Assembly: GCA_048941285.1 (NCBI GenBank) | Contig: JBHLNS010000012.1 | Location: forward strand, 8,859 to 72,858 | Length of the DNA: 64,000 bases | Reading direction: 5' to 3' | From: Promethearchaeota archaeon | GTDB taxonomy: Archaea; Asgardarchaeota; Lokiarchaeia; Sigyniarchaeales; SOKP01 | Part shown: positions 1 through 12,583 of the stretch, piece after piece | Numbering within the stretch: the stretch's first letter is position 1 | Layout of the letters: each line of letters starts with the position of its first letter | Made by a program: the position numbers and the translations under genes | Notes under the pieces: model-generated | Told to the model about the DNA's origin: nothing | What the model saw: the letters and a program-made list of their open reading frames with translations, nothing else | Database searches by the model: none

Positions 1-447
1 AGCACTTCTCATAGACAAAATGCTTTCTATAGATTTGAAAAGGTTCTTCATGATTTATTAGAACAAAAGCTTCCTACCACTGAAGAATATCAAAACGCAT
101 TTGTGAAGGAAATTGAAATGATGTTTAGAAATTCTATAGTAAATATTAAAGAAGAATATGCTACCTATTGTTTTGTTGTTTCACATTTTCTTCAAGTTCC
201 TTTCTATGTCTATGCATATAATATGGCTAATCTTTTAGTAATTTCAATTTATCAATTATATCTTGAGCAAAAGGAAGAATTTGTACCAAAATATCTAAAA
301 TTGCTGTGTATTGGGAGTTCACTTTCTCCAGAGGAAATGCTGTCTGAAATTGGCATAAATTTAAATGATCCATCATTTTGGGCAAAAGGAATTAAGTTTC
401 TTTCGGATAAAATTGATGAGTTAGAATCTTTAGTTCAAAAAAATTAA
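1..447 (+). CDS. M3 family oligoendopeptidase F, C-terminal part (runs off the window start)
   Basis: Frame +1 is open from position 1 (STSHRQNAFYRFEKVLH...). It contains HF..PFYVYAY and Y.KLL..GSS..P.E.L..IGI.L, typical of the PepF/M3B C-terminus. Confidence 0.8.
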   Translation, partial: STSHRQNAFYRFEKVLHDLLEQKLPTTEEYQNAFVKEIEMMFRNSIVNIKEEYATYCFVVSHFLQVPFYVYAYNMANLLVISIYQLYLEQKEEFVPKYLKLLCIGSSLSPEEMLSEIGINLNDPSFWAKGIKFLSDKIDELESLVQKN

Positions 448-461
448 CTTTTTTCTTTTTT

Positions 462-2405
462 CTAAAAATTAGCCTCTAAATGTTCAATCTCAGCTAAAAA
501 TAAATCCGCAATTGTAACCCATTTTTTTTTTTCGTCAATATCACTTAAAATATTTTCTGTAAGTTCTTTGCCTTTCTTAAGATACTCTACTGCTTTTTTA
601 TAATTTTCTAGTTCTTTATAACAAATCCCTATTTTTATGTTAGTTTGATAAACATACCAATCATTACTACCAATTTTTATTGCTTTTAAGAATTCTTCAA
701 TAGCATTCTTATATTCCTTGAAAAACATTAGAATTTCACCATAACTGTCATGATATACTGCATTATTAGGAACTCGCCCTATAAGGTCTTGTATAATTTT
801 TATGGATTCTTCTTTTTGGTTTAAATATTGCAACCAAAAGGCCTTATAATTGAGAAGATCGTTGTCTTCTGGCTGCTTTTCAAGTAGTTGATCGATAATT
901 TCTAACCCAGATTTTACATTTTTCATTTCTTTAAGTACATACGCTCTTTTGACCTGAATACTTTTCTCTTCACCTGGAAATTCTAAAAGCATTTTATCTA
1001 GAAATTCTAACAATTGCTTATATTCACCTTTATCACGTAAAATTTTACTCTTAGAAAAATAAAGATCAATATTTTTGGGATTTGATTTTATAATTTCGTC
1101 AATATCTTTAATAGTATTACTAACTTCACTTTTTCTTCCGTTAAATGTAAATTCATAATCTTGGATTTCTTGCCAAATTAAACCTTCTAACTTATCATAT
1201 GTATCGACTAGCATTTTTTCTTTTTCAATTTTATATGCTAGATAATTAATATAACCTGGTAAAAATTTACGTAAAGAATTTTTTAACCCGTTATCGAAAA
1301 GATTGCCACAACTTTCCTCCAAGATAGCTGCAACTGTACTTTCCATAGTAAATGGAGATATTTCATTAGGTGTAGCTCCATATAAATTATTCAAATAAGA
1401 AAACCTAGTAATGTGATCCTCTACAATTGCATTTAGCATCCGTTCTAATTTCTCATTTGCTTGAAAGTAATATACTTCATTTTCGCTAAGTTCCAATTTA
1501 AAAAATTTGATTGGAAAAATATCTTCTTCAACTATTCTTAGTATAATAAAATTGAGTTTAACATAATTCAAATTATATTTTTTAGAAAAATCCTCTGAAG
1601 AAATATAAAAAGGATATTGATCCGGATGATTTATTGCTAGAAATAATAAAATTTTATGAAATTCTTCTTCTATTTCTAAAGAAGATTCTACTTTTTCATA
1701 TGGTAATTTTAGTACATTATTTAGAAAACGAAATTTTATATTTTCATCTTTTATCTTATATTTCTTAAAGAAGTTAATTGTAGTTTTGGTTATTTCTTTA
1801 ATGCGTTTACCTTCTTCCTCAAGGATCGATTGTCTGTCTAAATCATATAATCTTAACATATTTGAGTATTCTAATTTCCCTAGTTGGGTAATCCTATATT
1901 TTTTATCTTCTTTTTGGACATAGTCTTGATTTATTAACAAATTCATGTTTTTTGATAATGAAGATTGATTTATCTTCAGTGGGGTGTTAAGAAAATCCGC
2001 CCATTTACAAAAATTATTATTAAATAACATCCAGAGGATCCAATGATTATAGTTTCGCTTTCTAAGAATCGCACCAGGAGGAAAACTTAACTGTCTTCTT
2101 TTACCTTTAGATTGAGTTAATTCATAAAATCGATTTCTGCCTTTAGATGTAATTTGATATTTATTATAAGCACTTTTATTGATATAATCATTTTCAATTA
2201 AGGTTTTTAAATAATTATATAGAGTGGATTTGGAGAATATTTGGTTAGATTCCAAATTTTTAATTTCTAAAAAGTTAGCGCTTGAGCAAGATTCATTATT
2301 ATTTAACATCCAAAGTATAATAAGTTCAAATTTAGGCTTACTAATCCTGGAAGGGGGTTCTAAAATTTCTTTGGGAGGATAATTGATTATGTTTGCATTA
2401 ATCAA
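462..2405 (-). CDS. Tandem winged-helix + C-terminal TPR protein, putative transcriptional regulator
   Basis: Two similar N-terminal units (ILWML.NN..C...F...S.S.L...L..LI..DY..K....Y.IT..G) resemble wHTH domains. About the last 200 aa are TPR repeats. TTG start. Confidence 0.75.
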   Translation of the reverse strand: MINANIINYPPKEILEPPSRISKPKFELIILWMLNNNESCSSANFLEIKNLESNQIFSKSTLYNYLKTLIENDYINKSAYNKYQITSKGRNRFYELTQSKGKRRQLSFPPGAILRKRNYNHWILWMLFNNNFCKWADFLNTPLKINQSSLSKNMNLLINQDYVQKEDKKYRITQLGKLEYSNMLRLYDLDRQSILEEEGKRIKEITKTTINFFKKYKIKDENIKFRFLNNVLKLPYEKVESSLEIEEEFHKILLFLAINHPDQYPFYISSEDFSKKYNLNYVKLNFIILRIVEEDIFPIKFFKLELSENEVYYFQANEKLERMLNAIVEDHITRFSYLNNLYGATPNEISPFTMESTVAAILEESCGNLFDNGLKNSLRKFLPGYINYLAYKIEKEKMLVDTYDKLEGLIWQEIQDYEFTFNGRKSEVSNTIKDIDEIIKSNPKNIDLYFSKSKILRDKGEYKQLLEFLDKMLLEFPGEEKSIQVKRAYVLKEMKNVKSGLEIIDQLLEKQPEDNDLLNYKAFWLQYLNQKEESIKIIQDLIGRVPNNAVYHDSYGEILMFFKEYKNAIEEFLKAIKIGSNDWYVYQTNIKIGICYKELENYKKAVEYLKKGKELTENILSDIDEKKKWVTIADLFLAEIEHLEANF

Positions 2406-2466
2406 GGTGGTCCCTAAATAAATTTTTTTATTATAAGTTTACGGAGGAGAAAATTCTATAAAAATG

Positions 2467-2498
2467 TATGGATTCCAAAACATTTATAGGAGTCCATA
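2467..2498. promoter_or_regulatory. Palindromic operator candidate bracketing a TATA-like box
   Basis: TATGGATTCC-N12-GGAGTCCATA (9/10 inverted match), with TTTATA at 2483-2488 in the spacer. Outer arms are AATTCTATA (2452-2460) and TATAGAATT (2497-2505). Confidence 0.5.
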
Positions 2499-2629
2499 TA
2501 GAATTCAATACAAAAAACCATAAAAAAAAATCTAATCTAATAATAAATCATACAAGAAAAATTAAATCACTAAATTGATCTTTTTAAAATTCTTTGAAGT
2601 TTCCCTATGAGATGAGGTAAAAAAAATAT

Positions 2630-2666
2630 GGGAGAGATGGGCAGCTAATTGAGGGAGAGATGGGCA
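2630..2666 (+). repeat. Perfect 14-bp direct repeat GGGAGAGATGGGCA, two copies
   Basis: Copies at 2630-2643 and 2653-2666 (23-nt period), GC-rich against an AT-rich background. Confidence 0.85.
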
Positions 2667-2677
2667 ATAGGTTTAAC

Positions 2678-2722
2678 AGAGAGCTCTGTTGTTTGGGAAA
2701 CAAACAACATTTTGAGCTCTCT
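2678..2722. other. Strong stem-loop, candidate structured RNA element
   Basis: AGAGAGCTC-TGTTGTTTG-[GGAAA]-CAAACAACA-[TTTT bulge]-GAGCTCTCT gives 18 perfect base pairs. Confidence 0.7.
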
Positions 2723-3055
2723 ATTCCTTAAATAACCTAAACGAGAATAATCTAATAGTTCTAAAGAACAGAATAGAAAATATTCTAACCTAATTGGGCG
2801 AATAACTGCCCACAATCCCACTGTTTATGAATTAAAATATTAAAATCATTATAGATCACATTTTCTATAAAAGATATATTCTTTAAAAAAATCCAAAGAT
2901 ATGGTTAATCATAACGAATTTTAATTTAAAATTTTGGAATTTTTAGATATTAATTCTAATGGATTATTAAACTAATAAAAGAAAATTTTATATTTTTATA
3001 AATCTAATCTTACATTAAATAATATTCTCAAGTACTATTTGTGTAAAGCATTCTT

Positions 3056-3616
3056 ATGAGTGGTTCAGGGGCAAAATTTAATTTTAAAATAACTGTAGTT
3101 GGAGATGGAAGAGTTGGAAAAACATCTCTTATTAAGAAATTTACACAAGGTGGATTTCAAGAGGATTATATCAAGACAATAGGGGCTCAGTTTTCTGTAT
3201 TCCTAAAAGAAATCAATGATGACGATATTAAATTATTATTTTGGGATATTGCAGGTCAAGATGATTTCAATTTTTTGCGTCCATCTTTTTTTAAAAATAG
3301 TAGAGCTGCGATAATAGTATATAGTCTTGAGGAAAATGATCTTGGTGAAGAAAGTTTCAACCATATCTCAAATTGGTATAATGACATCATTCAATTTTGT
3401 GGTAAAATTCCTGTAGTTTTATTTGCTAATAAAGTCGATTTAATTGATGAAAATAGTTTAGATACATCAATTATTCAAAAAATAGTAAATAAACATAAAT
3501 TTTTAGACTATTATATAACCTCAGCAAAAACAGGAAAAGGTGTCGTTGATGCATTTAATGCAATTATTAATGTATTATATGAGAAATATAAAGCTTTATC
3601 ATCTGATATGGAATGA
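3056..3616 (+). CDS. Ras-superfamily (Rab-like) small GTPase
   Basis: G1 GDGRVGKT, G2 TIG, G3 WDIAGQ, G4 NKVD and G5 TSAK are all present. No C-terminal prenylation Cys. Confidence 0.95.
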   Translation: MSGSGAKFNFKITVVGDGRVGKTSLIKKFTQGGFQEDYIKTIGAQFSVFLKEINDDDIKLLFWDIAGQDDFNFLRPSFFKNSRAAIIVYSLEENDLGEESFNHISNWYNDIIQFCGKIPVVLFANKVDLIDENSLDTSIIQKIVNKHKFLDYYITSAKTGKGVVDAFNAIINVLYEKYKALSSDME

Positions 3617-3863
3617 TCTAATTCATCAGGGGAAAAATTCTGTATGAAATCACTTTTTTTATAAATTGGATATAAAATTTCCCTGATTTTCTAACACCGC
3701 CAAGTACATTTTTAATTAAATAACTAAAATCCTTTTAACATTTGTCCAATATAAGTCTGAGATTCCAATTAAAGTTCAGTACAGTAAACTAAAAATACAA
3801 TCTTGATCTAATTATATTTATAGTCCAACATAAGAAAAATTGTTGTTAAGGAGGTGTTGAAAT

Positions 3864-4130
3864 CTGACTGAGAGTAAGCAAAATATAGTTTCCAATTTTA
3901 AGGAATTCTTCTATATATTTTACAAAGAAGAAGCCAAAGAAGAATTGAAGGATGTAAAAGAAAATACTCAATTTAAGGAATTTAAGACTTTAAATAAAAA
4001 AAGTGCTTCTACTAATAATGAAGTAGACCTTATAGAGAAGAAGAGGGCATTAAAAAGATGGAAACAATCTTTTAGTTATTATTGTTTGCATCCTGATAAA
4101 TTCAGGTTTGGAATAAAAGATTTAAAATAA
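3864..4130 (+). CDS. Small hypothetical protein, probable CTG start (MTESKQNIVSNFKEFF...)
   Basis: The track ORF 3945..4130 extends in frame to CTG at 3864, which lies 7 nt after a GGAGGTG Shine-Dalgarno. An in-frame TGA sits at 3858. Confidence 0.55.
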   Translation: MTESKQNIVSNFKEFFYIFYKEEAKEELKDVKENTQFKEFKTLNKKSASTNNEVDLIEKKRALKRWKQSFSYYCLHPDKFRFGIKDLK

Positions 4131-4152
4131 CAAAATGGGGGGTGTATGAAAA

Positions 4153-4407
4153 ATGGTCCAAGTTTTAGATAAAAATAAAGAACTTAAGCATAGTCTAGTT
4201 TTGGAAGAAATTATAATTTTAGAAGAACTCCCTATAGAAGGGGAGTATGTCGAGGAATCTAAAGTTATCGAACATAAGAAACCACCAAAAAGAGTTTTAT
4301 CAAAATTATTAAAAAAAGCAAAATTAAACGCTAATTATCTTAAAGAAATAGAAAGAATTGAAGATGTAAAAAACAAATTGAATTATAGAAATCGAGCAAT
4401 TTTCTAG
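4153..4407 (+). CDS. Small hypothetical protein (acidic N-terminus, basic C-terminus)
   Basis: 84-aa ORF with a GGGGGTG SD-like motif upstream, following the previous small ORF. Confidence 0.6.
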   Translation: MVQVLDKNKELKHSLVLEEIIILEELPIEGEYVEESKVIEHKKPPKRVLSKLLKKAKLNANYLKEIERIEDVKNKLNYRNRAIF

Positions 4408-4588
4408 AATTTTAATCTTAAGCCTTTTATTTTAAAAAAATATAAATAAAAAAATGTAGAAAATCTATCAGTAATATTTTTTCTTTAATCTTTTTCTGAG
4501 AAGAATTAGGAAGTTTTTAAATATGACCTAACCATTTATTAATATAGCAATTTTAAAGCGAAATCTAAAATTAATAGAGGTTATAAAA

Positions 4589-4816
4589 ATGAGTAAAAAT
4601 TTAGAAGAAATAATTAATCAAAAATTTGGAGAAACTTACGGTCCAAAAATTAAGAAAGCATTGAAAGATGGATTAGAAGCTAATGATACTGAAGAACAAT
4701 TGAAAAAGCGCTTATTGGGGGCTATTATTGACCCAACCCAAGTTAATCAAGAGCAAGCTAACGCAGTTTTCGATCTTGTTATTGTAGCTGAATGGATCAC
4801 TTTTCGATCTCTATAG
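4589..4816 (+). CDS. 75-aa peptide, candidate RiPP precursor
   Basis: GAGGT SD at 4577-4581 and TATA-like TTTTTAAATA at 4514-4523. Charged helical N-terminal part, hydrophobic C-terminal tail (AVFDLVIVAEWITFRSL). Lies 72 nt upstream of a radical SAM gene. The CDS is well supported; the RiPP role is inference. Confidence 0.7.
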   Translation: MSKNLEEIINQKFGETYGPKIKKALKDGLEANDTEEQLKKRLLGAIIDPTQVNQEQANAVFDLVIVAEWITFRSL

Positions 4817-4828
4817 AAATAACTCCCA

Positions 4829-4855
4829 TTTTTCTTTTTATAATTTTTTCTTTTT
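4829..4855 (+). terminator. Oligo-T tract between the peptide gene and the radical SAM gene
   Basis: TTTTTCTTTTTATAATTTTTTCTTTTT resembles an archaeal T-rich terminator. Confidence 0.4.
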
Positions 4856-4888
4856 GGATTAAGAAATTTCTAAAATTAGATTTTACAT

Positions 4889-7156
4889 GTGTATTTGAAA
4901 TGTAATATTATAAGTGAATTTCTATTGAATGAGAATTATCTGGATATACTGATGGTTTTTCCTTCTGGTGGAGATTTTTATGTTCCTAATTTTACCTACA
5001 ATTTAGGTGCAGCATATATAATAGCATATTTAAGGAAAAATGGATATGCTGCTGAACAGTTCATTGCAAATCAATCTTACAATGTAGAAGAATGCGTTAA
5101 ATTATTATTAAAGTATAATCCAAAAATTATTGGTTTTACTGTTTATGATAGTAATTATATGCAATGTGCTTTGATAAGTAATGGATTGAAAGCCGTTAAT
5201 TCTGAAGTTCTTATCATTTTTGGAGGACCTACTCCTAGTGTGCAATCTAGACAAATTTTAGAAAGAGTGAAAAGCGTTGATATCTGTGTTAAATGGGAAG
5301 GGGAGGAAACACTTCTTTCATTATTAAACCAATTATCACAAAATGAATTCAAATTAAAAAATGTCGCTCTATTAAATATTAAAGGTATCTCATTTAGGAT
5401 TGAAGGTAAAATTGTTATAAATCCTGATTCTCATGTGTTATTGCAAAATAGGTCCATCGATAATTATTTAGACAATTATCCATCTCCTTATCTTACAAAA
5501 ATAATTCCAACTTCAGAAGCAGCCCGCACGGGGATGATCACTGCAAGAGGTTGTAATCAAAATTGTATTTATTGCAATAGTGCGGTTATCAGCAATAGAA
5601 ACATCTTCTTTCATTCAATAGATAGAGTTATTGAAGAGTTGGAACTTCTCAATAAAAATTCAGATTTTATCGGGCCTGTTCCAATTATGGATGATGCTTT
5701 TACAATAATCCCAGATAGAGCAAGAAAGATATGTGAAAAAATAATTGAAAATAAGATTAATATTCCATTAAGCTTCATAACTCGATGTGACAAGATTACT
5801 GAAGATTTACTAGACCTTATGAAGCAAGCGGGCTTTATGTCTGTTGGATTCTCTCTAGAAAGTGCTGTTCCGAGGGTCTTAAGAACGCTAGGCAAGGTAA
5901 ATCCTCCAGATAGCAAAACAGATTTTAACAAGGAGAAGGAATTCATTGAAAGATTGAAAAGAATGACTAGTTATGCGAAAAAGATAGGGTTTAGCCCCGT
6001 ATTTGTCAGTATAATGGTAGGTTTACCTGGTGAATCACTTAAAGATGCAAAAAAAACAATGAAGCTAGTAAGTCAATTAAACATGGATTTCTATGCCCAT
6101 AATTATCTACATATTTTTCAGGGGACTCCTCTCTATCAAAATCATTTAAAATATGGATACGAAATAACTCCATGGGGGAAAAATAATAACGTCATAACAC
6201 ATAATAACTTCCCATTTGATATCAACAAGATAAAATTAGCACCAAAATCTGAAATGGAGAGTAATCGTAAGGTTATTGATTATAAAAATCAAAAAATAAT
6301 GTCATTAAAACCCAAACGAGTGGATTTGAAACCTTATTTTGATAATGTAATTATTAACTCAGATATTATAAAGGATAATTTAGTCAAATGGATACAAGAT
6401 AACCTTAAAATAAATGGAACAATCATTCATCTTTATTCAAATAGAAAGAATTTCGACAAAAATAATATAAAAAATAATCAGGTCCTATATAACGATTTAT
6501 CACCAACTATGTTTTATGAATGCTACTTCAGGGAATATTCAAGGAAAAAGTCTATTTTCAAATCAAAGATAATATCTTCATTAGGTGATCAAATTGGTTT
6601 ATCTATTGTATTAAAAAACACTAATGTAGCTTTAGAAGAATACAAAATAGGTAAAACTAATATGGAAAACACAATTTGTATAGATCGCGATGTTATTGAC
6701 AGCCAATCACTTTACAATTATTTAATTAGGGTATTCAATAGTAAGGATCGTCTTAATTATTTACTAAAAAGCGCTCCATTGCCTCACTTTCAAAGTTTAT
6801 GCAGATGGACCAGTGCCTACGCAAATTGTAAAAAATTAGAAACAGTAATTATAGATCATGAAGACAATGTTAGATTTTGCTGGCAAATGGACCCAATCGG
6901 AAAAGTGGGAGATAATTTTAATAAAATCATAGAAAAATTACTCCAAATACATGAGGAACAAGTAAAAATAAGAGAATGTATTAGTTGTATTAGATATGAG
7001 ACTTGTATAAAATGTCCATTTACTAACCCTTTATCAATTGAGGAATATTGCGAATTGAAACGTAAAAATAATACAATCAAATCCACTAAAATAATTAATT
7101 CTGTTGATATATTAAAAGATTTAATGTATAAGCAGATTAATCGATTTGATTTCTAA
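4889..7156 (+). CDS. B12-binding radical SAM protein with C-terminal Cys-rich SPASM-like domain
   Basis: N-terminal cobalamin-binding domain (NLGAAYIIAYL...GFTV...FGGPTPS...WEGEE), RGCNQNCIYC (CxxxCxxC), GLPGES, and C-terminal CRW-X6-C...C...CISC-X5-CIKC...YC. The true start may be a few codons downstream. Confidence 0.9.
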   Translation: MYLKCNIISEFLLNENYLDILMVFPSGGDFYVPNFTYNLGAAYIIAYLRKNGYAAEQFIANQSYNVEECVKLLLKYNPKIIGFTVYDSNYMQCALISNGLKAVNSEVLIIFGGPTPSVQSRQILERVKSVDICVKWEGEETLLSLLNQLSQNEFKLKNVALLNIKGISFRIEGKIVINPDSHVLLQNRSIDNYLDNYPSPYLTKIIPTSEAARTGMITARGCNQNCIYCNSAVISNRNIFFHSIDRVIEELELLNKNSDFIGPVPIMDDAFTIIPDRARKICEKIIENKINIPLSFITRCDKITEDLLDLMKQAGFMSVGFSLESAVPRVLRTLGKVNPPDSKTDFNKEKEFIERLKRMTSYAKKIGFSPVFVSIMVGLPGESLKDAKKTMKLVSQLNMDFYAHNYLHIFQGTPLYQNHLKYGYEITPWGKNNNVITHNNFPFDINKIKLAPKSEMESNRKVIDYKNQKIMSLKPKRVDLKPYFDNVIINSDIIKDNLVKWIQDNLKINGTIIHLYSNRKNFDKNNIKNNQVLYNDLSPTMFYECYFREYSRKKSIFKSKIISSLGDQIGLSIVLKNTNVALEEYKIGKTNMENTICIDRDVIDSQSLYNYLIRVFNSKDRLNYLLKSAPLPHFQSLCRWTSAYANCKKLETVIIDHEDNVRFCWQMDPIGKVGDNFNKIIEKLLQIHEEQVKIRECISCIRYETCIKCPFTNPLSIEEYCELKRKNNTIKSTKIINSVDILKDLMYKQINRFDF

Positions 7157-7332
7157 TTAATTTATAAAATAAATATTTATATTTGAAAGAGAGATGAAGA
7201 AAAATGATTACTACAAAGTCTTTTAAACCAATTTTTCTTCTTTTTTCAAAAGAGTTCGAAAAATTTTTGTATTTAAAATTTCGAGATATCCATTAATTCA
7301 AATACTTGTGAGAAAAAAGGGAGATAATAAAA

Positions 7333-9408
7333 TTGCTTGATTCGAGTCTCAATGAATTAACCTCTATAGAACAATTAATATATAAATGCAAATTTAAACA
7401 GGCGCTTGAAAGAGTTGCACACTTCGAGAAGAAAAAAGAGATTTCTTTAAAAGAAAAACTCTCAGCACTTATTTTAAAAGGGAAGATATATTATTTTAAT
7501 GAACAGTATAAAAATGCTGTAGAAGTTGGTGAACTTGCTTACAATTTGAGTCAAAAGTTAGGTATTGTTACTGAAACTATTAATGCTCTCTTAATTAAAG
7601 CACAAATTGTATTCACCGGAAAATTGGGAGAAGCACATAACTATATTGAAGAAGCTGAAAATCTAATTAATCCCCTTATAAATAATTCCTCCTTTGATAT
7701 TATTGAACAACAAGCAGATTTAATATTAATAAAATCTATAATTTATCGCATTAGTAATGATCTTAACAAAGCATTAGAGCTAGCTTTAAAATGGCTTGAA
7801 CTGAAGGAGAAAACAAGTAAAAAGCTCGAAACTTCACGCATTTATTGGCAACTGGGAGAAATCTTCCTTTATAAATCTGAACCTAATAGGGCTTTAGATT
7901 ATGCTAAAAAAAGTTTAACAATTCAAAAGGAATTAAATAATCCTGTTGGTATTGCTACAAGTTTAAATCTAGTTGGTCTTACCTATTATAGTAAAGGTAA
8001 CTTTAATCAGGCGTTAAAGTTTTGTAAGCAGAGTCTTACAATTAAAGAAATAAGTGTTCGGACTAAAATTGATGCTTTACATAATTTAGGTGCTATCTAC
8101 AAAGAAATGGGTGAGATAAATAGAACTCTACGGTATTATAATAGAGCAATTGCACTTGCAGAAAAAGAAGATTATACTGAAAATTATATCATCAATGTTT
8201 TAGGAATTGGGACGATCTATAGAATGAAAGGAGAATATGTTAGAGCAATAGAATATTTTAAACATAGTTTAAAACTTTCTAAAAAAATCAAATCTCTATA
8301 TGGAATGAGCGCTACCCTTTTTTATTTGGTATTAATTAGTATTGATTTAAATAAACATCAGGAAGCACAGATATATGTATCTCAATTAGATGAACTCGCG
8401 ACTCAAACAGGCAGTAATATATTTAAACAAGCCAATATTATTGCGAAGGCGTTAATCTTAAAGAAAAGTGGTCGCATAAGGAACCATACTGAAGCTGAAA
8501 TGTTACTAAAAAAAATAACTGAAAAAGAAATAGCTACTCCTCAGTTGTATCTATTAGCATTTGTTAATTTATGTGAGTTATTCTTAAATGAGATGTCTAT
8601 TACTAATAGTATGGATGCTTTGGATGAATTGAATCCATTACTTACACGTATATCTAAAATAGCAGAAAAACAAAATGCCTATTTATGGTTGGCAGAAATA
8701 AAACTCTTGCAAGCAAAACTTGCCTTAATTCAGATGAAAATCAAGGATGCTAAACAATTATTAACTTATTCTCAACAGATCGCGGAGATCCATGGTCTTA
8801 ACTTGCTAGCGGTAAAAATCTCAAGCGAACATGATAATCTATTAGATCAATTAAACGTATGGGACAATCTTGAGAAACAAAACGCTCCGTTAGCAGATAG
8901 AATAAAACTAGCATCTTTTGAAAGTGTTATTAATCGGATGCAGGGAAAAAGTGTTGTAGATCCTCCAAAATTAATTCATGAAATACCAGTCTTACTATTA
9001 ATTATTGGGGAAGGAGGATTTCCTTTATTTTCTAATTCTTTTACGAAAGAAATAGATTTTGAAGGTGATCTTATAAGTGGATTTTTAAGCGCATTCGATT
9101 CATTCAGTGGAGAACTTTTTGCGAAAAGGCTTGACCGAGCTAAATTTGGTGATTACATAATACTTATGCAAGCAGCTAATCCTTTTTCATTCTGCTATTT
9201 ATTCAAAGGACAGACATATTTAGCTAGACAAAAATTAAAAAAATTTGTTGATTCAATACAAAACTCGCAGAAAATTTGGGAGACAATAAATAATTATTAT
9301 ACTACTAATCGGGTCGTCGAACTAAAAGATCATCCTTCTATTGAGTTATTAATAAATGAGATTTTTATTAGAAAAATTCCTAAATTGATTGGAGATCAAT
9401 CCTATTAA
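7333..9408 (+). CDS. TPR-repeat protein with C-terminal longin-like domain
   Basis: Many TPR repeats (e.g. ATSLNLVGLTYYSKGNFNQALKF). The C-terminal ~130 aa (LLLII.EGGFPLFS..F......DLISGFLSAF.SFS.E.F) resemble longin/roadblock-type small domains. Confidence 0.75.
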   Translation: MLDSSLNELTSIEQLIYKCKFKQALERVAHFEKKKEISLKEKLSALILKGKIYYFNEQYKNAVEVGELAYNLSQKLGIVTETINALLIKAQIVFTGKLGEAHNYIEEAENLINPLINNSSFDIIEQQADLILIKSIIYRISNDLNKALELALKWLELKEKTSKKLETSRIYWQLGEIFLYKSEPNRALDYAKKSLTIQKELNNPVGIATSLNLVGLTYYSKGNFNQALKFCKQSLTIKEISVRTKIDALHNLGAIYKEMGEINRTLRYYNRAIALAEKEDYTENYIINVLGIGTIYRMKGEYVRAIEYFKHSLKLSKKIKSLYGMSATLFYLVLISIDLNKHQEAQIYVSQLDELATQTGSNIFKQANIIAKALILKKSGRIRNHTEAEMLLKKITEKEIATPQLYLLAFVNLCELFLNEMSITNSMDALDELNPLLTRISKIAEKQNAYLWLAEIKLLQAKLALIQMKIKDAKQLLTYSQQIAEIHGLNLLAVKISSEHDNLLDQLNVWDNLEKQNAPLADRIKLASFESVINRMQGKSVVDPPKLIHEIPVLLLIIGEGGFPLFSNSFTKEIDFEGDLISGFLSAFDSFSGELFAKRLDRAKFGDYIILMQAANPFSFCYLFKGQTYLARQKLKKFVDSIQNSQKIWETINNYYTTNRVVELKDHPSIELLINEIFIRKIPKLIGDQSY

Positions 9409-9512
9409 AAAGGAAGATCTTGACTTTTTTATCTTAAACATTGAATTTATAATTCAATATCTATTTACTAGTATGTGTTAATTATAACTTAATTAAATAA
9501 TATACAAAGTGA

Positions 9513-11048
9513 ATAAAGATTCGCACGTTCGAACAATATGTTGAAGATTTAAAAAAAATGAAGCCGAATGTTTATATCGGTGAAGAAAAGGTAGGTAGGG
9601 ATGACCCTCGTATCCAAGGAGGAATGAACATTATTAAAGAAACTTTTGATCGTGCTCATGATCCAGAATATGAAGATTTATGCACAGCAACCTCACACTT
9701 AACTGGTAAAACTATAAATCGTTTTTGTCACATACACCAGAGTGAAGAAGATCTGCTAAAAAAGCAGAAAATGACTCGACTTTTATGTCATCGGGTTGGT
9801 GGGTGTATTCAGCGATGTATGGGAATTGATGCTATGAATGCGCTCTCAATTATTACTTATGAGATGGATCAAGCGCTCGGAACCGATCATTATAAGAGAT
9901 TTTTGAAGTATTTAGAATATTTTCAAGATAGGGATATAGTGGCAAGTTGTGCGCAAACAGATGCTAAAGGAGATCGCTTAAAAAGACCCCATCAACAAGA
10001 AGACCCAGATCAATATTTAAGAGTTGTTGAAACTAGAAAAGATGGCATTATTGTAAGAGGTTGTAAAATTAATATTACTAATACTCCCTATGCTGATGAG
10101 TTTATTGTTGTTCCATGTAGGTATATGGGTCCTGAAGATAAGGATTATGCTGTAGCATTTGCCTTACCTGGTGATTGGGAAGGAGTTAAATTACTAACTA
10201 GGCCAGCATATTATAGAAAAAGTGAGTTTATGAATGCTCCAGGATTAAAAATGGGAGATGCCGAAACATTCATCATCTTTGATGATGTTTTTGTTCCTAA
10301 TGAACGAGTTTTTCTAAATGGCAATGCTGATCCGCGACAAACTCCTTATGCTGGATTTTTAGCCCTAACTTTTGCTCATTATCATCGTCACACTTATACT
10401 GGCTGTAAACCAGCGATGTCGGAAGTTTTAGCCTCTGCTGCTGCTTTAGTTGCAGAATATAATGGTATTGAAAAAGCTTCTCATGTCCAAGATAAACTAT
10501 CTCATATTATTGGGATTGCTGAACTAGTTTTTGCAGCTGGTGAATCAAGCGCTAAACATTCAGAAAAGTCTCCCTCTGGTACCCAAATTCCAGATGAAAT
10601 ACTTACAAATGCAGGTAGACGTTTAGCGGGAGAAAATATATATGAAGAATACAGAATATTGGCAGATTTATCTGGAGGTTTGATTGCTACTTTACCTTAT
10701 GAAGGATCGTTCTTCTCGGAAGAAGTAGGGGATCTTGCGATGAAATATCTAAAAAGAAACCCACGAGTTAAACCAGAATATATCTATCGTTGTTTTCGGG
10801 GCATTGAAGGAATGGTAGTATCCGATTTAGGGGGTTTAATGCAAGTTGCAGGAGTTCATGGTGGTGGATCTCCCCAAATGGAAACAATAACTATGATGAT
10901 GCGTTATGATACTGAAAGACTTAAAGATATTTCAAAATATCTTTTTGGTATTAAATCTAAATTAAAAAAATACGAAAGGCCTACCGTCACTCCTCGGAAA
11001 ATGTTGGAAAAATTTGGAAAAACGATGCAACGGAAGGATAAAAAATAA
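9513..11048 (+). CDS. 4-hydroxybutyryl-CoA dehydratase / 4-hydroxyphenylacetate 3-hydroxylase family protein (paralog 1), probable ATA start
   Basis: CIQRC, TDAKGDR.KRP, HYHRHTYTGCK and HGGGSP motifs. The frame extends upstream of ATG 9558 to ATA 9513, giving IKIRTFEQYVEDLKKM, which matches the N-terminus of the paralog at 56809. Confidence 0.85.
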   Translation: MKIRTFEQYVEDLKKMKPNVYIGEEKVGRDDPRIQGGMNIIKETFDRAHDPEYEDLCTATSHLTGKTINRFCHIHQSEEDLLKKQKMTRLLCHRVGGCIQRCMGIDAMNALSIITYEMDQALGTDHYKRFLKYLEYFQDRDIVASCAQTDAKGDRLKRPHQQEDPDQYLRVVETRKDGIIVRGCKINITNTPYADEFIVVPCRYMGPEDKDYAVAFALPGDWEGVKLLTRPAYYRKSEFMNAPGLKMGDAETFIIFDDVFVPNERVFLNGNADPRQTPYAGFLALTFAHYHRHTYTGCKPAMSEVLASAAALVAEYNGIEKASHVQDKLSHIIGIAELVFAAGESSAKHSEKSPSGTQIPDEILTNAGRRLAGENIYEEYRILADLSGGLIATLPYEGSFFSEEVGDLAMKYLKRNPRVKPEYIYRCFRGIEGMVVSDLGGLMQVAGVHGGGSPQMETITMMMRYDTERLKDISKYLFGIKSKLKKYERPTVTPRKMLEKFGKTMQRKDKK

Positions 11049-12046: not shown

Positions 12047-12583
12047 TCACCTATTACCAGTTTTTTCTAATGTTATCTCAGTAAGAACTTTAAAAGCATC
12101 ATCTACATTGATATTCTCTTTAGCCGAAATTTCAACAAAACTTGCCATATCATTTTTTTCAGCAATTTGGATTCCATATTCTCTTTGGACTTCTCGTTGA
12201 GATTTTTCAAGGTCTAATTTTGAGCCAACTAGCATAATAGGTATTTGCCCTCCTTTTTGTCTTACAATTGTGATCCATTCTGAAATATTATCTAAAGTAG
12301 AGGGTCTGGTGATATCGTATAGTAAAAAGGCAGCATTCGCCCCTAAACAATATGTTGGTAAGAGAAATCTAAATCTCTCTTCACCTCCAACATCCCATAA
12401 TTGTAATTTTATTCTTTTATAATTTAACTCGATTGTCTTGACGTGAAAATCTACACCAATCGTCAATCTTTCGCTCGGGTTGAAAATGTTATAACAATAG
12501 CGTTTTGTGAAAGATGTTTTGCCTACTGAAGCATCACCAAGTAATAAAATTTTATATGTATAATCATAATTCGCCATTTTCAT
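12047..12583 (-). CDS. Rab-like small GTPase
   Basis: GDASVGKT, TIGVDF, KLQLWDVGGEERFR, LLYDIT, SKLD and EISAK. Confidence 0.95.
   Translation of the reverse strand: MKMANYDYTYKILLLGDASVGKTSFTKRYCYNIFNPSERLTIGVDFHVKTIELNYKRIKLQLWDVGGEERFRFLLPTYCLGANAAFLLYDITRPSTLDNISEWITIVRQKGGQIPIMLVGSKLDLEKSQREVQREYGIQIAEKNDMASFVEISAKENINVDDAFKVLTEITLEKTGNR

Follow-up and report, generated by a model that had tools for sequence, protein, structure and literature searches.

Introduction

Among the enzymes that modify peptides by radical S-adenosylmethionine (SAM) chemistry, two groups come closest to the system considered here, which consists of a short gene and the enzyme gene behind it in a 64,000-nucleotide stretch (hereafter the window) of a Promethearchaeota archaeon genome (contig JBHLNS010000012.1). 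The first group comprises the class B peptide C-methyltransferases (ApyD, PoyB/PoyC, the bottromycin methyltransferases and MgmA/QCMT), which share with the window enzyme an N-terminal cobalamin (B12)-binding domain and a CX3CX2C core. Class B enzymes mostly methylate unactivated carbons and no peptide C-methyltransferase of this group is known to carry a SPASM-like domain with two clusters. In its accessible part, a 2022 review of cobalamin radical SAM enzymes (PMC9204698) treats SPASM/twitch and cobalamin-dependent enzymes as separate classes. ApyD, as described in the accessible part of its report (10.1101/2023.10.30.564719), methylates the C-beta of the penultimate tyrosine in the C-terminal motif of its precursor, giving beta-methyltyrosine, and contains a recognition element (RRE) for ribosomally synthesised peptides with post-translational modifications (RiPPs); the window tail would be alike in offering an aromatic residue near the C-terminus, whereas no RRE was detected in the window enzyme. 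For archaea, the accessible part of PMC12144867 describes the functional characterisation of predicted RiPP clusters as limited, and the experiments in it are on haloarchaeal lanthipeptides.

The second group comprises the radical SAM-SPASM maturases (ChlB, SuiB, CteB, PqqE, TigE and SkfB), taken here together with anSME. These furnish the best structural matches of the C-terminal half of the window enzyme (Z 5.7-6.7), the maturases likewise adjoin a short precursor-like gene, and the window pattern ...C-x16-C...CX2CX5CX2C-x11-C is close to the SPASM consensus. The window enzyme differs from them in that its SPASM-like domain comes after a B12-binding radical SAM half and a second, apparently cluster-less and barrel-like domain, and in that it has no N-terminal RRE and scores below the Pfam and NCBIfam SPASM cut-offs.

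An initial annotation of the window had read the two genes as a candidate RiPP system. From the comparison of related loci presented here it is suggested that they probably form a RiPP-type precursor/maturase unit, because the leader of the peptide is conserved, its tail is variable, the precursor gene is at times duplicated, the co-occurrence with the enzyme is strict and the distribution is patchy. Its most likely product is a peptide with a chemical modification, of a type so far undescribed.

Pairing of the peptide and enzyme genes

The two genes lie in tandem (ORF, open reading frame; positions are those of the window):

4589-4816, plus strand: gene of the precursor-like peptide, 75 aa (coordinates include the stop codon), from the ORF listing; its family is restricted to the flank of this enzyme family.
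4889-7156, plus strand: candidate maturase gene, 755 aa from GTG 4889, with likelier starts at TTG 4925 (743 aa) or ATG 4952 (734 aa).

The enzyme is single-copy in its own genome, where the two other matches are short B12-binding radical SAM paralogs. Sixty related genomes were searched (61 including that of the window) and full-length orthologs, at 43-61% identity, were present in 15 of the 60, namely in 14 of the 36 genomes of the same genus (52-61%) and in one of the 14 genomes of family f2 (43%); the other enzyme matches among the relatives are paralogs of about 480-520 aa, limited to residues about 20-425. Each of the 15 orthologs is preceded on its own strand by an ORF of 72-98 aa, at a distance of 54-166 nt. 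A search of the 60 relatives with the single peptide sequence returned one weak match (G017, E 0.0011), which adjoins the ortholog there; the family is too divergent for single-sequence searches and a profile was therefore needed. This profile matched 16 of the 61 genomes, which are exactly that of the window (G000) and the 15 enzyme-bearing relatives, and all 19 matches adjoin the enzyme; the rest of these genomes and the 45 that lack the enzyme gave no match. The initial annotation had proposed testing whether a short ORF with a V/I-rich, W-containing C-terminus is syntenic with homologs of the enzyme, and had held that its absence would speak against the proposal; a neighbouring peptide with an aromatic, V/I/T-rich C-terminus is in fact conserved in all 15 related genomes, and also in Bacteroidales and Aminicenantes.

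Given that most of the loci come from one genus with a conserved gene order, in which an upstream GTPase gene and two further small ORFs are kept too, the short ORF might be taken for a chance ORF in AT-rich DNA, or for an unrelated neighbour retained by local synteny. This is hardly credible for three reasons: first, the pair persists in different surroundings, as in L019/L057, where the gene of a tetratricopeptide repeat (TPR) protein lies on the other side, and in the Bacteroidales and Aminicenantes. Second, the protein-level profile is significant across domains of life. Third, no copies of the peptide occur away from the enzyme, and the profile searches already contradict such a reading.

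Distribution beyond Asgard archaea

Full-length relatives of the enzyme were found under the record titles Promethearchaeota, Hodarchaeota, Hermodarchaeota and Thorarchaeota and in Candidatus Lokiarchaeum ossiferum, at 37-42% identity in Bacteroidales, Aminicenantes and Desulfobacteraceae, and at 29-37% in Clostridia, Omnitrophota, Methanotrichaceae and Thermococci; database relatives of the enzyme bear generic names only. In the cultured Ca. L. ossiferum the homologous pair is locus L057. Bacterial loci at about 40% enzyme identity also hold a short ORF beside the enzyme. In a scan of one genome per species, covering 79 loci and 2,823 ORFs and including 35 control loci with shorter B12-binding radical SAM paralogs only, a profile built from Asgard peptides alone found the bacterial ORFs in L064 (E 4.3e-5), L066 (4.7e-5 and 3.8e-4) and L065 (1.2e-4) and, more weakly, in L059 (9.4e-4), L058 (0.012) and L060 (0.049 and 0.12), and it found nothing below E 0.06 in the 35 controls. 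It is the leader block of the family that lets this profile reach the bacterial peptides. The family peptide accompanies 29 of the 32 enzyme loci at 38% identity or above; of the remaining three, L062 is borderline, L053 has only 210 nt of upstream sequence and L076 has none. At L067 and L069 an ORF of 46 aa with a similar aromatic/aliphatic tail occupies the equivalent position.

In a quick tree search with a midpoint root, from which no donor or direction of transfer is read, the peptide-bearing enzymes are set apart by a branch that has 100% support in the Shimodaira-Hasegawa-like approximate likelihood ratio test (SH-aLRT), the Asgard sequences forming one group (93%) with the bacterial lineages branching alongside. 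The system is not specific to Asgard archaea.

Several of the loci outside the Asgard archaea are elaborate. L066 (Aminicenantes, positions 40-6411) carries in tandem a partial enzyme at the contig edge, an enzyme of 744 aa, a peptide of 57 aa, an enzyme of 750 aa and a second peptide of 57 aa, the two peptides differing by few residues. L060 (Aminicenantes) has two peptides, the enzyme and then an M4 thermolysin-like peptidase downstream, L061 has two further B12-binding radical SAM genes, and the distant locus L077 (Omnitrophota, 157-10080) has GT4 and GT2 glycosyltransferases, a stand-alone PqqD, two GT2-PqqD fusions and a radical SAM-SPASM protein, and looks like a separate glycosylating RiPP-type cluster. 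Judged by gene content, the surroundings of L060, L061, L066 and L077 are of RiPP type.

Two side observations concern these loci. The enzyme of L060 (1782-3962) is without the CxxC-x5-CxxC motif and has only four cysteines in its last 140 aa, so that decay of this copy, or a different function for it, may be considered. An ORF downstream of L061 that does not belong to the peptide family gives a weak NHLP-related match (E 0.038).

Anatomy of the peptide family

The window peptide divides into two parts:

4589-4765, plus strand: leader-like part, residues 1-59, charged and helical, with the family-conserved block around ...I(I/L)x(K/R)(F/Y)G... seen in the alignment of 18 Asgard peptides.
4766-4813, plus strand: core-like hydrophobic tail, residues 60-75, in which W69-I70-T71 aligns with the aromatic-X-Thr/Ser motif of relatives.

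The 18 Asgard peptides (alignment A1) align over a common leader block and a common tail pattern, and both in A1 and in the iterated profile set of 34 peptides the leader is conserved and the hydrophobic/aromatic tail is variable. Typical Asgard tails end in HWVT[VA]G, YWVTAG, FITVG, NYETIG[RS] or FVSIG, and aromatic-X-(T/S/I)-X-G ends 19 of the 34 peptides. The tail of the window peptide, ...VIVAEWITFRSL, is hydrophobic and free of cysteine, as the initial annotation had it and as the ORF translation bears out; at its extreme C-terminus, ...AEWITFRSL, the W-I-T is aligned with the aromatic-X-Thr of other members, and a relative at 78% identity retains ...IVAEWITFR and differs only in the last two residues. 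Two peptide genes each are present in L012, L014 and L018, where the second copy lies further upstream, and in L060 and L066.

The peptide has no counterpart in curated collections: it gave zero Pfam or NCBIfam matches even at E up to 10, so that the folded family to which, on the initial annotation's own terms, it might have belonged did not appear; a search of the ESM Atlas gave nothing usable by features and just generic helical look-alikes by structure, and all its database relatives are labelled 'hypothetical protein'. An NHLP or Nif11 leader domain was found neither in the window peptide nor in nine of ten other neighbouring short ORFs tested, and the family is unrelated to the proteusin/NHLP/Nif11 precursors of PoyB/C-like enzymes.

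Paired CxxxC motifs on two apparent helices occur in about 7 of the 18 Asgard leaders (L010, L011, L012, L014, L015, L016 and L018), perhaps as a metal-binding site or a disulfide staple; they are not family-wide, the window peptide and others being without any.

Since about 55 residues of the leader make up a conserved helical domain, the small protein could also be an accessory subunit (a scaffold, chaperone or carrier) of an enzyme that in truth acts on a small molecule, on a lipid or on some other protein. The potentially metal-binding cysteine pairs in 7 of the 18 A1 peptides, the Asgard loci without a nearby protease, exporter or RRE, and the many class B enzymes that by their NCBIfam names act on small molecules or lipids would suit such a role. 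It is nevertheless very improbable: an accessory subunit would be expected to be conserved over its whole length, whereas here the leader is conserved and the C-terminal tail varies; the tandem small genes with differing tails (L012, L014 and L018) suit substrates better; the paired cysteines are missing from the window peptide and many others; and the structural neighbours of the C-terminal half of the enzyme are mostly peptide maturases.

The last six to seven residues are strongly conserved between Asgard species (the HWVT[VA]G, FITVG and NYETIG types), unlike hypervariable bacteriocin cores. This raises the possibility that the peptide is modified but not secreted, being either the precursor of a redox cofactor or signal that is cut from its extreme C-terminus, as PQQ and mycofactocin are, or a small protein that remains in the cell in modified form, and it is consistent with this that no exporter or immunity gene lies at the pair and that PqqE is among the best structural matches. 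This account is unlikely, given that the pair is patchy within one genus (14 of 36 genomes), which suits an accessory trait over a core cofactor, that no conserved partner dehydrogenase or cofactor-pathway genes adjoin it, and that the tails of the bacterial members are completely different.

Possible recognition of the leader

A co-fold of the enzyme with the peptide, SAM and three [4Fe-4S] clusters scored 0.52, the best of three controls scoring 0.00, and the runs agree on at least 50% of contacts with a partner pLDDT (predicted local distance difference test) of at least 59. Of 80 solved complexes 58 attain the pass mark, as do 2 of 110 mismatched pairs, but within the range up to 0.60 there are only 7 of the 80 solved complexes and both of the passing mismatches. 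The co-folding that the initial annotation had proposed lends weak support, a small increment, to binding of the peptide by the enzyme. A single match of one relative to a daptide RRE model (E 0.003) falls on the cysteine-rich segment and is not credible.

The B12-binding radical SAM half of the enzyme

The domains of the N-terminal half are as follows:

4985-5323, plus strand: cobalamin (B12)-binding domain, residues 33-145 (PF02310, E 3.9e-14, 53 bits against a cut-off of 32.1).
5534-6070, plus strand: radical SAM core, residues 216-394 (PF04055, E 3.6e-19, 70 bits against a cut-off of 29.5).

The motif CNQNCIYC spans residues 222-229 (nt 5552-5575), and its CX3CX2C cysteines, C222, C226 and C229, do not vary among 15 orthologs or in a set of 29 sequences extending to distant relatives; conservation of the B12 domain is good throughout the family. 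By its domains, a B12-binding domain and a CX3CX2C core, the N-terminal half would be placed in class B. The full-length model (pLDDT 81.7, predicted TM-score (pTM) 0.86) finds CysS, MgmA, TsrM, TokK and OxsB by Foldseek, with E values of 4e-14 to 2e-11 and alignments of about 400-535 columns, the methyl-coenzyme M reductase (MCR) glutamine methylase MgmA (structure 9ccb) being among the top matches, and sequence profiles of the enzyme retrieve AprD4, CysS, OxsB and TokK. Membership of a curated subfamily is not indicated: all NCBIfam families of B12-binding radical SAM enzymes, HpnJ included, score below cut-off, the best being the PhpK family (108.6 bits against 600), followed by ApyD, whose model matches residues 70-419 at E 3e-27 but at 95.3 bits against 750, and rSAM_ocin_1 (61.4 against 281.85), with KedN5 and BchE among other class B matches far below threshold.

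Where the enzyme begins is uncertain (codon 1, 13 or 22). The ortholog alignment begins at about codon 13 (TTG 4925), and public gene calls use codon 22 (ATG 4952) or codon 13, so that the spacer between peptide and enzyme measures 72-135 nt. The gap of 72 nt and the length of 755 aa given in the initial annotation hold for GTG 4889; with the likelier starts the gap grows to as much as 135 nt and the enzyme shortens to 734-743 aa. In-frame stops encountered in six orthologs fall outside the genes, upstream of the true starts, the query having about 21 extra N-terminal residues, and intact ORFs of 739-747 aa are present at those loci.

The cysteine-rich C-terminal half

Beyond residue 424 the window enzyme has no Pfam match, and a search of residues about 460-755 gave noise only (E>0.01). 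Two further domains are nevertheless recognised:

6326-6778, plus strand: middle alpha/beta domain, about residues 480-630, without conserved cysteines, from a model of residues 425-755.
6800-7051, plus strand: SPASM-like cysteine-rich domain, residues 638-721, with eight invariant cysteines, from cysteine invariance and spacing, TIGR04085 matches and structural matches.

The cysteine-rich tail is as the initial annotation described it. Its pattern is C638-x8-C647-x16-C664-x32-C697-x2-C700-x5-C706-x2-C709-x11-C721, all eight cysteines are invariant in the same 15 orthologs and 29 sequences, and of 17 further loci that were examined 16 show its equivalent, L060 alone departing from it. The seven-cysteine SPASM consensus is CX9-15GX4C-gap-CX2CX5CX3C-gap-C, and the window spacing fits it except that the glycine of GX4C is replaced by aspartate or asparagine and that the last gap is X2, not X3. 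The SPASM model TIGR04085 matches the window tail at E 0.017-0.045 (14.2-15.6 bits; cut-off 27) and 9 of 28 family C-termini at E<=0.1, the best at 2.7e-4; the maturase model TIGR04148 matches 2 of the 28 (best 5.9e-7), CcpM one, and Pfam SPASM (PF13186) two, the SPASM, TIGR04148 and CcpM matches all landing on one common C-terminal segment.

A separate model of residues 425-755 (pLDDT 87, pTM 0.89) was compared with 48,161 chains by VIA-align. All 13 best matches are radical SAM enzymes, most of them SPASM/twitch, with Z from 6.7 to 4.0: ChlB (Z 6.7, root-mean-square deviation 5.0, 223 residues aligned), anSMEcpe (6.5), SuiB (6.3), CteB (6.3), PqqE (6.2), TigE (5.8) and SkfB (5.7), and then BtrN, MoaA, BlsE, viperin, SpeY and EpeE. 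The alignments to whole radical SAM-SPASM enzymes cover model residues about 55-314, that is, the middle domain together with the cysteine-rich domain, and the cysteine-free middle domain therefore superposes on part of the barrels of those enzymes; its resemblance to a cluster-less radical-SAM-like half barrel is suggestive only. The nearest ESM Atlas clusters to residues 425-755 carry the automatic names of stand-alone TIGR04150 pseudo-radical-SAM, grasp-with-spasm and CXXX-repeat maturase families (features 0.87-0.88, TM-scores 0.41-0.53), which by the tool's own note, scores under 0.9 not being evidence, are leads only. As leads they fit a cluster-less radical-SAM-like domain followed by a SPASM domain, although those proteins are free-standing and of about 270-330 aa, whereas the window module is fused behind a B12-binding radical SAM half, and no NCBIfam model of the three families matched any of the 28 C-termini at E<=0.1. 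An hhalign comparison of the C-terminal alignment with one neighbouring radical SAM-SPASM protein (L077) gave a probability of 0.2% and is uninformative.

In summary, a SPASM-like C-terminal half, as proposed in the initial annotation, is supported by the cysteine spacing, the sub-threshold model matches, the structural matches and the barrel-like preceding domain, and fails at the cut-offs of the curated models; the domain presumably binds two auxiliary [4Fe-4S] clusters. The same annotation had called the union of B12-binding and SPASM-like modules in one chain unusual. It is unannotated in curated families but far from scarce: when the C-terminal half is searched as a profile, 530 representatives of 50%-identity clusters match at E<=0.001, 83 of them at E<=1e-30, and among the matches listed most full-length proteins with the module have 700-880 aa and carry it at about 405-740. 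Ten distant proteins with the module were sampled, of which seven have B12-binding and Radical_SAM domains, two have Radical_SAM only and look N-terminally truncated, and one has neither.

No curated family (Pfam, NCBIfam) covers the architecture of the enzyme or the peptide, and the literature searched, which did not extend to subscription journals and supplements, yielded no description of this peptide family or of a SPASM domain in a cobalamin enzyme. The order B12-binding domain, radical SAM core, cluster-less barrel-like domain, SPASM-like domain thus appears to be undescribed.

Proposed chemistry

If the two genes are a precursor and its maturase, the conserved helical leader of the 75-aa product would be recognised by the enzyme, and the short, variable, hydrophobic/aromatic C-terminal tail (...AEWITFRSL in the window) would be the substrate. 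The enzyme would work in three parts, a class B half with cobalamin and a [4Fe-4S]/SAM site, a cluster-less alpha/beta domain and a SPASM-like domain. The 5'-deoxyadenosyl radical would take a hydrogen atom from the aromatic-X-Thr tail, at a carbon that is unactivated, methylcobalamin would then donate a methyl group to that carbon, giving one or more C-methylations of +14 Da each, and the SPASM-like module would hold the peptide and pass electrons, for example in re-reducing the cobalamin.

Granted such a pair, methylation is tentatively put first, at something under an even chance, because this is what class B enzymes, for example ApyD, mostly do. The SPASM-like clusters and the aromatic-X-Thr triad leave room for a cross-link, and an oxidative cross-link is less probable than methylation while a serious contender; both chemistries together, or something else again, are doubtful. 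In the fuller form of the cross-linking account the same pair would form an intramolecular link within the tail, either an aromatic-to-C-beta cyclophane across aromatic-X-Thr or an ether (-2 Da), the SPASM-like clusters oxidising the radical intermediate and the cobalamin being vestigial or an electron conduit. SPASM domains with auxiliary clusters are a typical feature of maturases that cross-link, SuiB, CteB, PqqE and SkfB rank among the best structural matches, and an aromatic-X-(T/S) triad is common to the tails and recalls the three-residue motif of triceptides. There are, moreover, B12-binding radical SAM enzymes that cross-link and do not methylate: in the accessible parts of these reports, the role of cobalamin in an enzyme that cross-links ortho to tyrosine is given as unclear and perhaps vestigial (PMC12257519), and ThnL is reported to form a thioether (PMC9407657). 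The account is nonetheless unlikely, given that the B12 domain is well conserved family-wide, which points to a working cofactor, and that the triad is missing from several tails, for example those of the Bacteroidales and of some Aminicenantes peptides. It is decidedly unlikely that one and the same aromatic-X-Thr tail undergoes B12-dependent C-methylation as well as oxidative cross-linking of the SPASM type, two radical chemistries that elsewhere belong to separate enzyme classes and would here be joined in a single chain, which would make this a new RiPP class with a new leader family common to Asgard archaea and anaerobic bacteria.

Weighing the precursor/maturase reading

A number of results weigh against reading the pair as a RiPP precursor and its SPASM-bearing maturase. 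Pfam and NCBIfam scans detected no RRE or PqqD domain in the window enzyme or beside the pair, and the model search of the C-terminal half that the initial annotation had suggested returned SPASM matches, all below threshold, and no RRE. No protease or exporter was found within about 5 kb of the pair in the window (ORF list and Pfam), which the initial annotation had already remarked on, and none was found near the pair in the Asgard loci of relatives; the product there may persist as a small protein in modified form, or an unlinked protease may process it. No member reaches the curated SPASM cut-offs (best 21.3 bits against 27, window 14-16 bits), a PDB sequence profile search with the C-terminal 180 aa gave nothing below E 0.2, Foldseek of the C-terminal model against the PDB gave no match at E<=0.001, and VIA-align Z values of 6-7 lie in a range which, by the tool's own warning, can stem from a common arrangement, the weight of those matches lying in the consistency of the list and not in the Z values. 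On the side of the peptide, the terminal glycine present in 19 of the 34 relatives is missing from the window tail, and the family peptide was absent by hidden Markov model search from all 12 loci at 37% identity or below, including those of Clostridia, Methanotrichaceae and Omnitrophota. Finally, the presence half of the co-occurrence is circular, the profile having been built from the same peptides, and the independent evidence lies in the absences and in the bacterial matches; most of the Asgard genomes, furthermore, are close kin and not independent observations.

Possible expression signals and neighbouring genes

Two possible signals flank the peptide gene:

4577-4581, plus strand: GAGGT, ribosome-binding-like, 7 nt before the peptide ATG, read directly and without statistical weight by itself.
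4817-4888, plus strand: intergenic spacer with two oligo-T tracts (about 4830-4857), read directly from the sequence.

The Shine-Dalgarno-like GAGGT and the oligo-T run after the peptide stop were both found where the initial annotation had placed them, and the spacer is a possible archaeal terminator or attenuator. The TATA-like box described there corresponds to AT-rich strings that are indeed present upstream of the peptide gene, but such strings are uninformative in DNA this AT-rich.

The neighbours of the pair are, upstream, a Ras-like GTPase gene and two small ORFs and, downstream, a TPR protein and an HpaB-family protein. The window holds two Ras/Rab-like small GTPase genes, at 3056-3616 (plus strand; Pfam Ras, E 3e-39) and at 12047-12583 (minus strand), and in L006, L013 and L016 the pair is likewise preceded by a homolog of the former. 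The small ORFs between this GTPase gene and the peptide gene, at 3945-4130 (plus strand, 61 aa) and 4153-4407 (plus strand, 84 aa; no Pfam match), show protein-level conservation in several loci of the same genus, the former also in L055, and both are absent from the bacterial loci.

The TPR protein (7333-9408, plus strand, 691 aa) has a C-terminal part of about 170 aa outside its repeats. A large TPR protein adjoins the pair in the window and in L055, L062, L019/L057 and the Bacteroidales loci L058 and L059, and it was considered as a third component of the system; this was rejected, given that BLASTP gave generic TPR similarity only and that the Asgard protein is one of a strongly expanded set of paralogs, which at E<=1e-30 number 27 matches in G002 and 15 in G006. 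The HpaB-family protein (9558-11048, plus strand; Pfam HpaB_N, E 3e-88) and a protein of 647 aa at 462-2405 (minus strand), in which winged-helix DNA-binding domains are followed by TPR repeats, are unrelated to the peptide-enzyme pair.

Implications

As a probable precursor/maturase unit, the pair is a compact, two-gene candidate for an archaeal RiPP pathway outside the haloarchaea, and its bacterial homologs come from organisms more amenable to handling. An active enzyme could reveal the role of auxiliary clusters in a cobalamin enzyme and could bring a new modification to the peptide-engineering toolbox. The distribution across domains is a clear case of an accessory module common to Asgard archaea and sediment bacteria.

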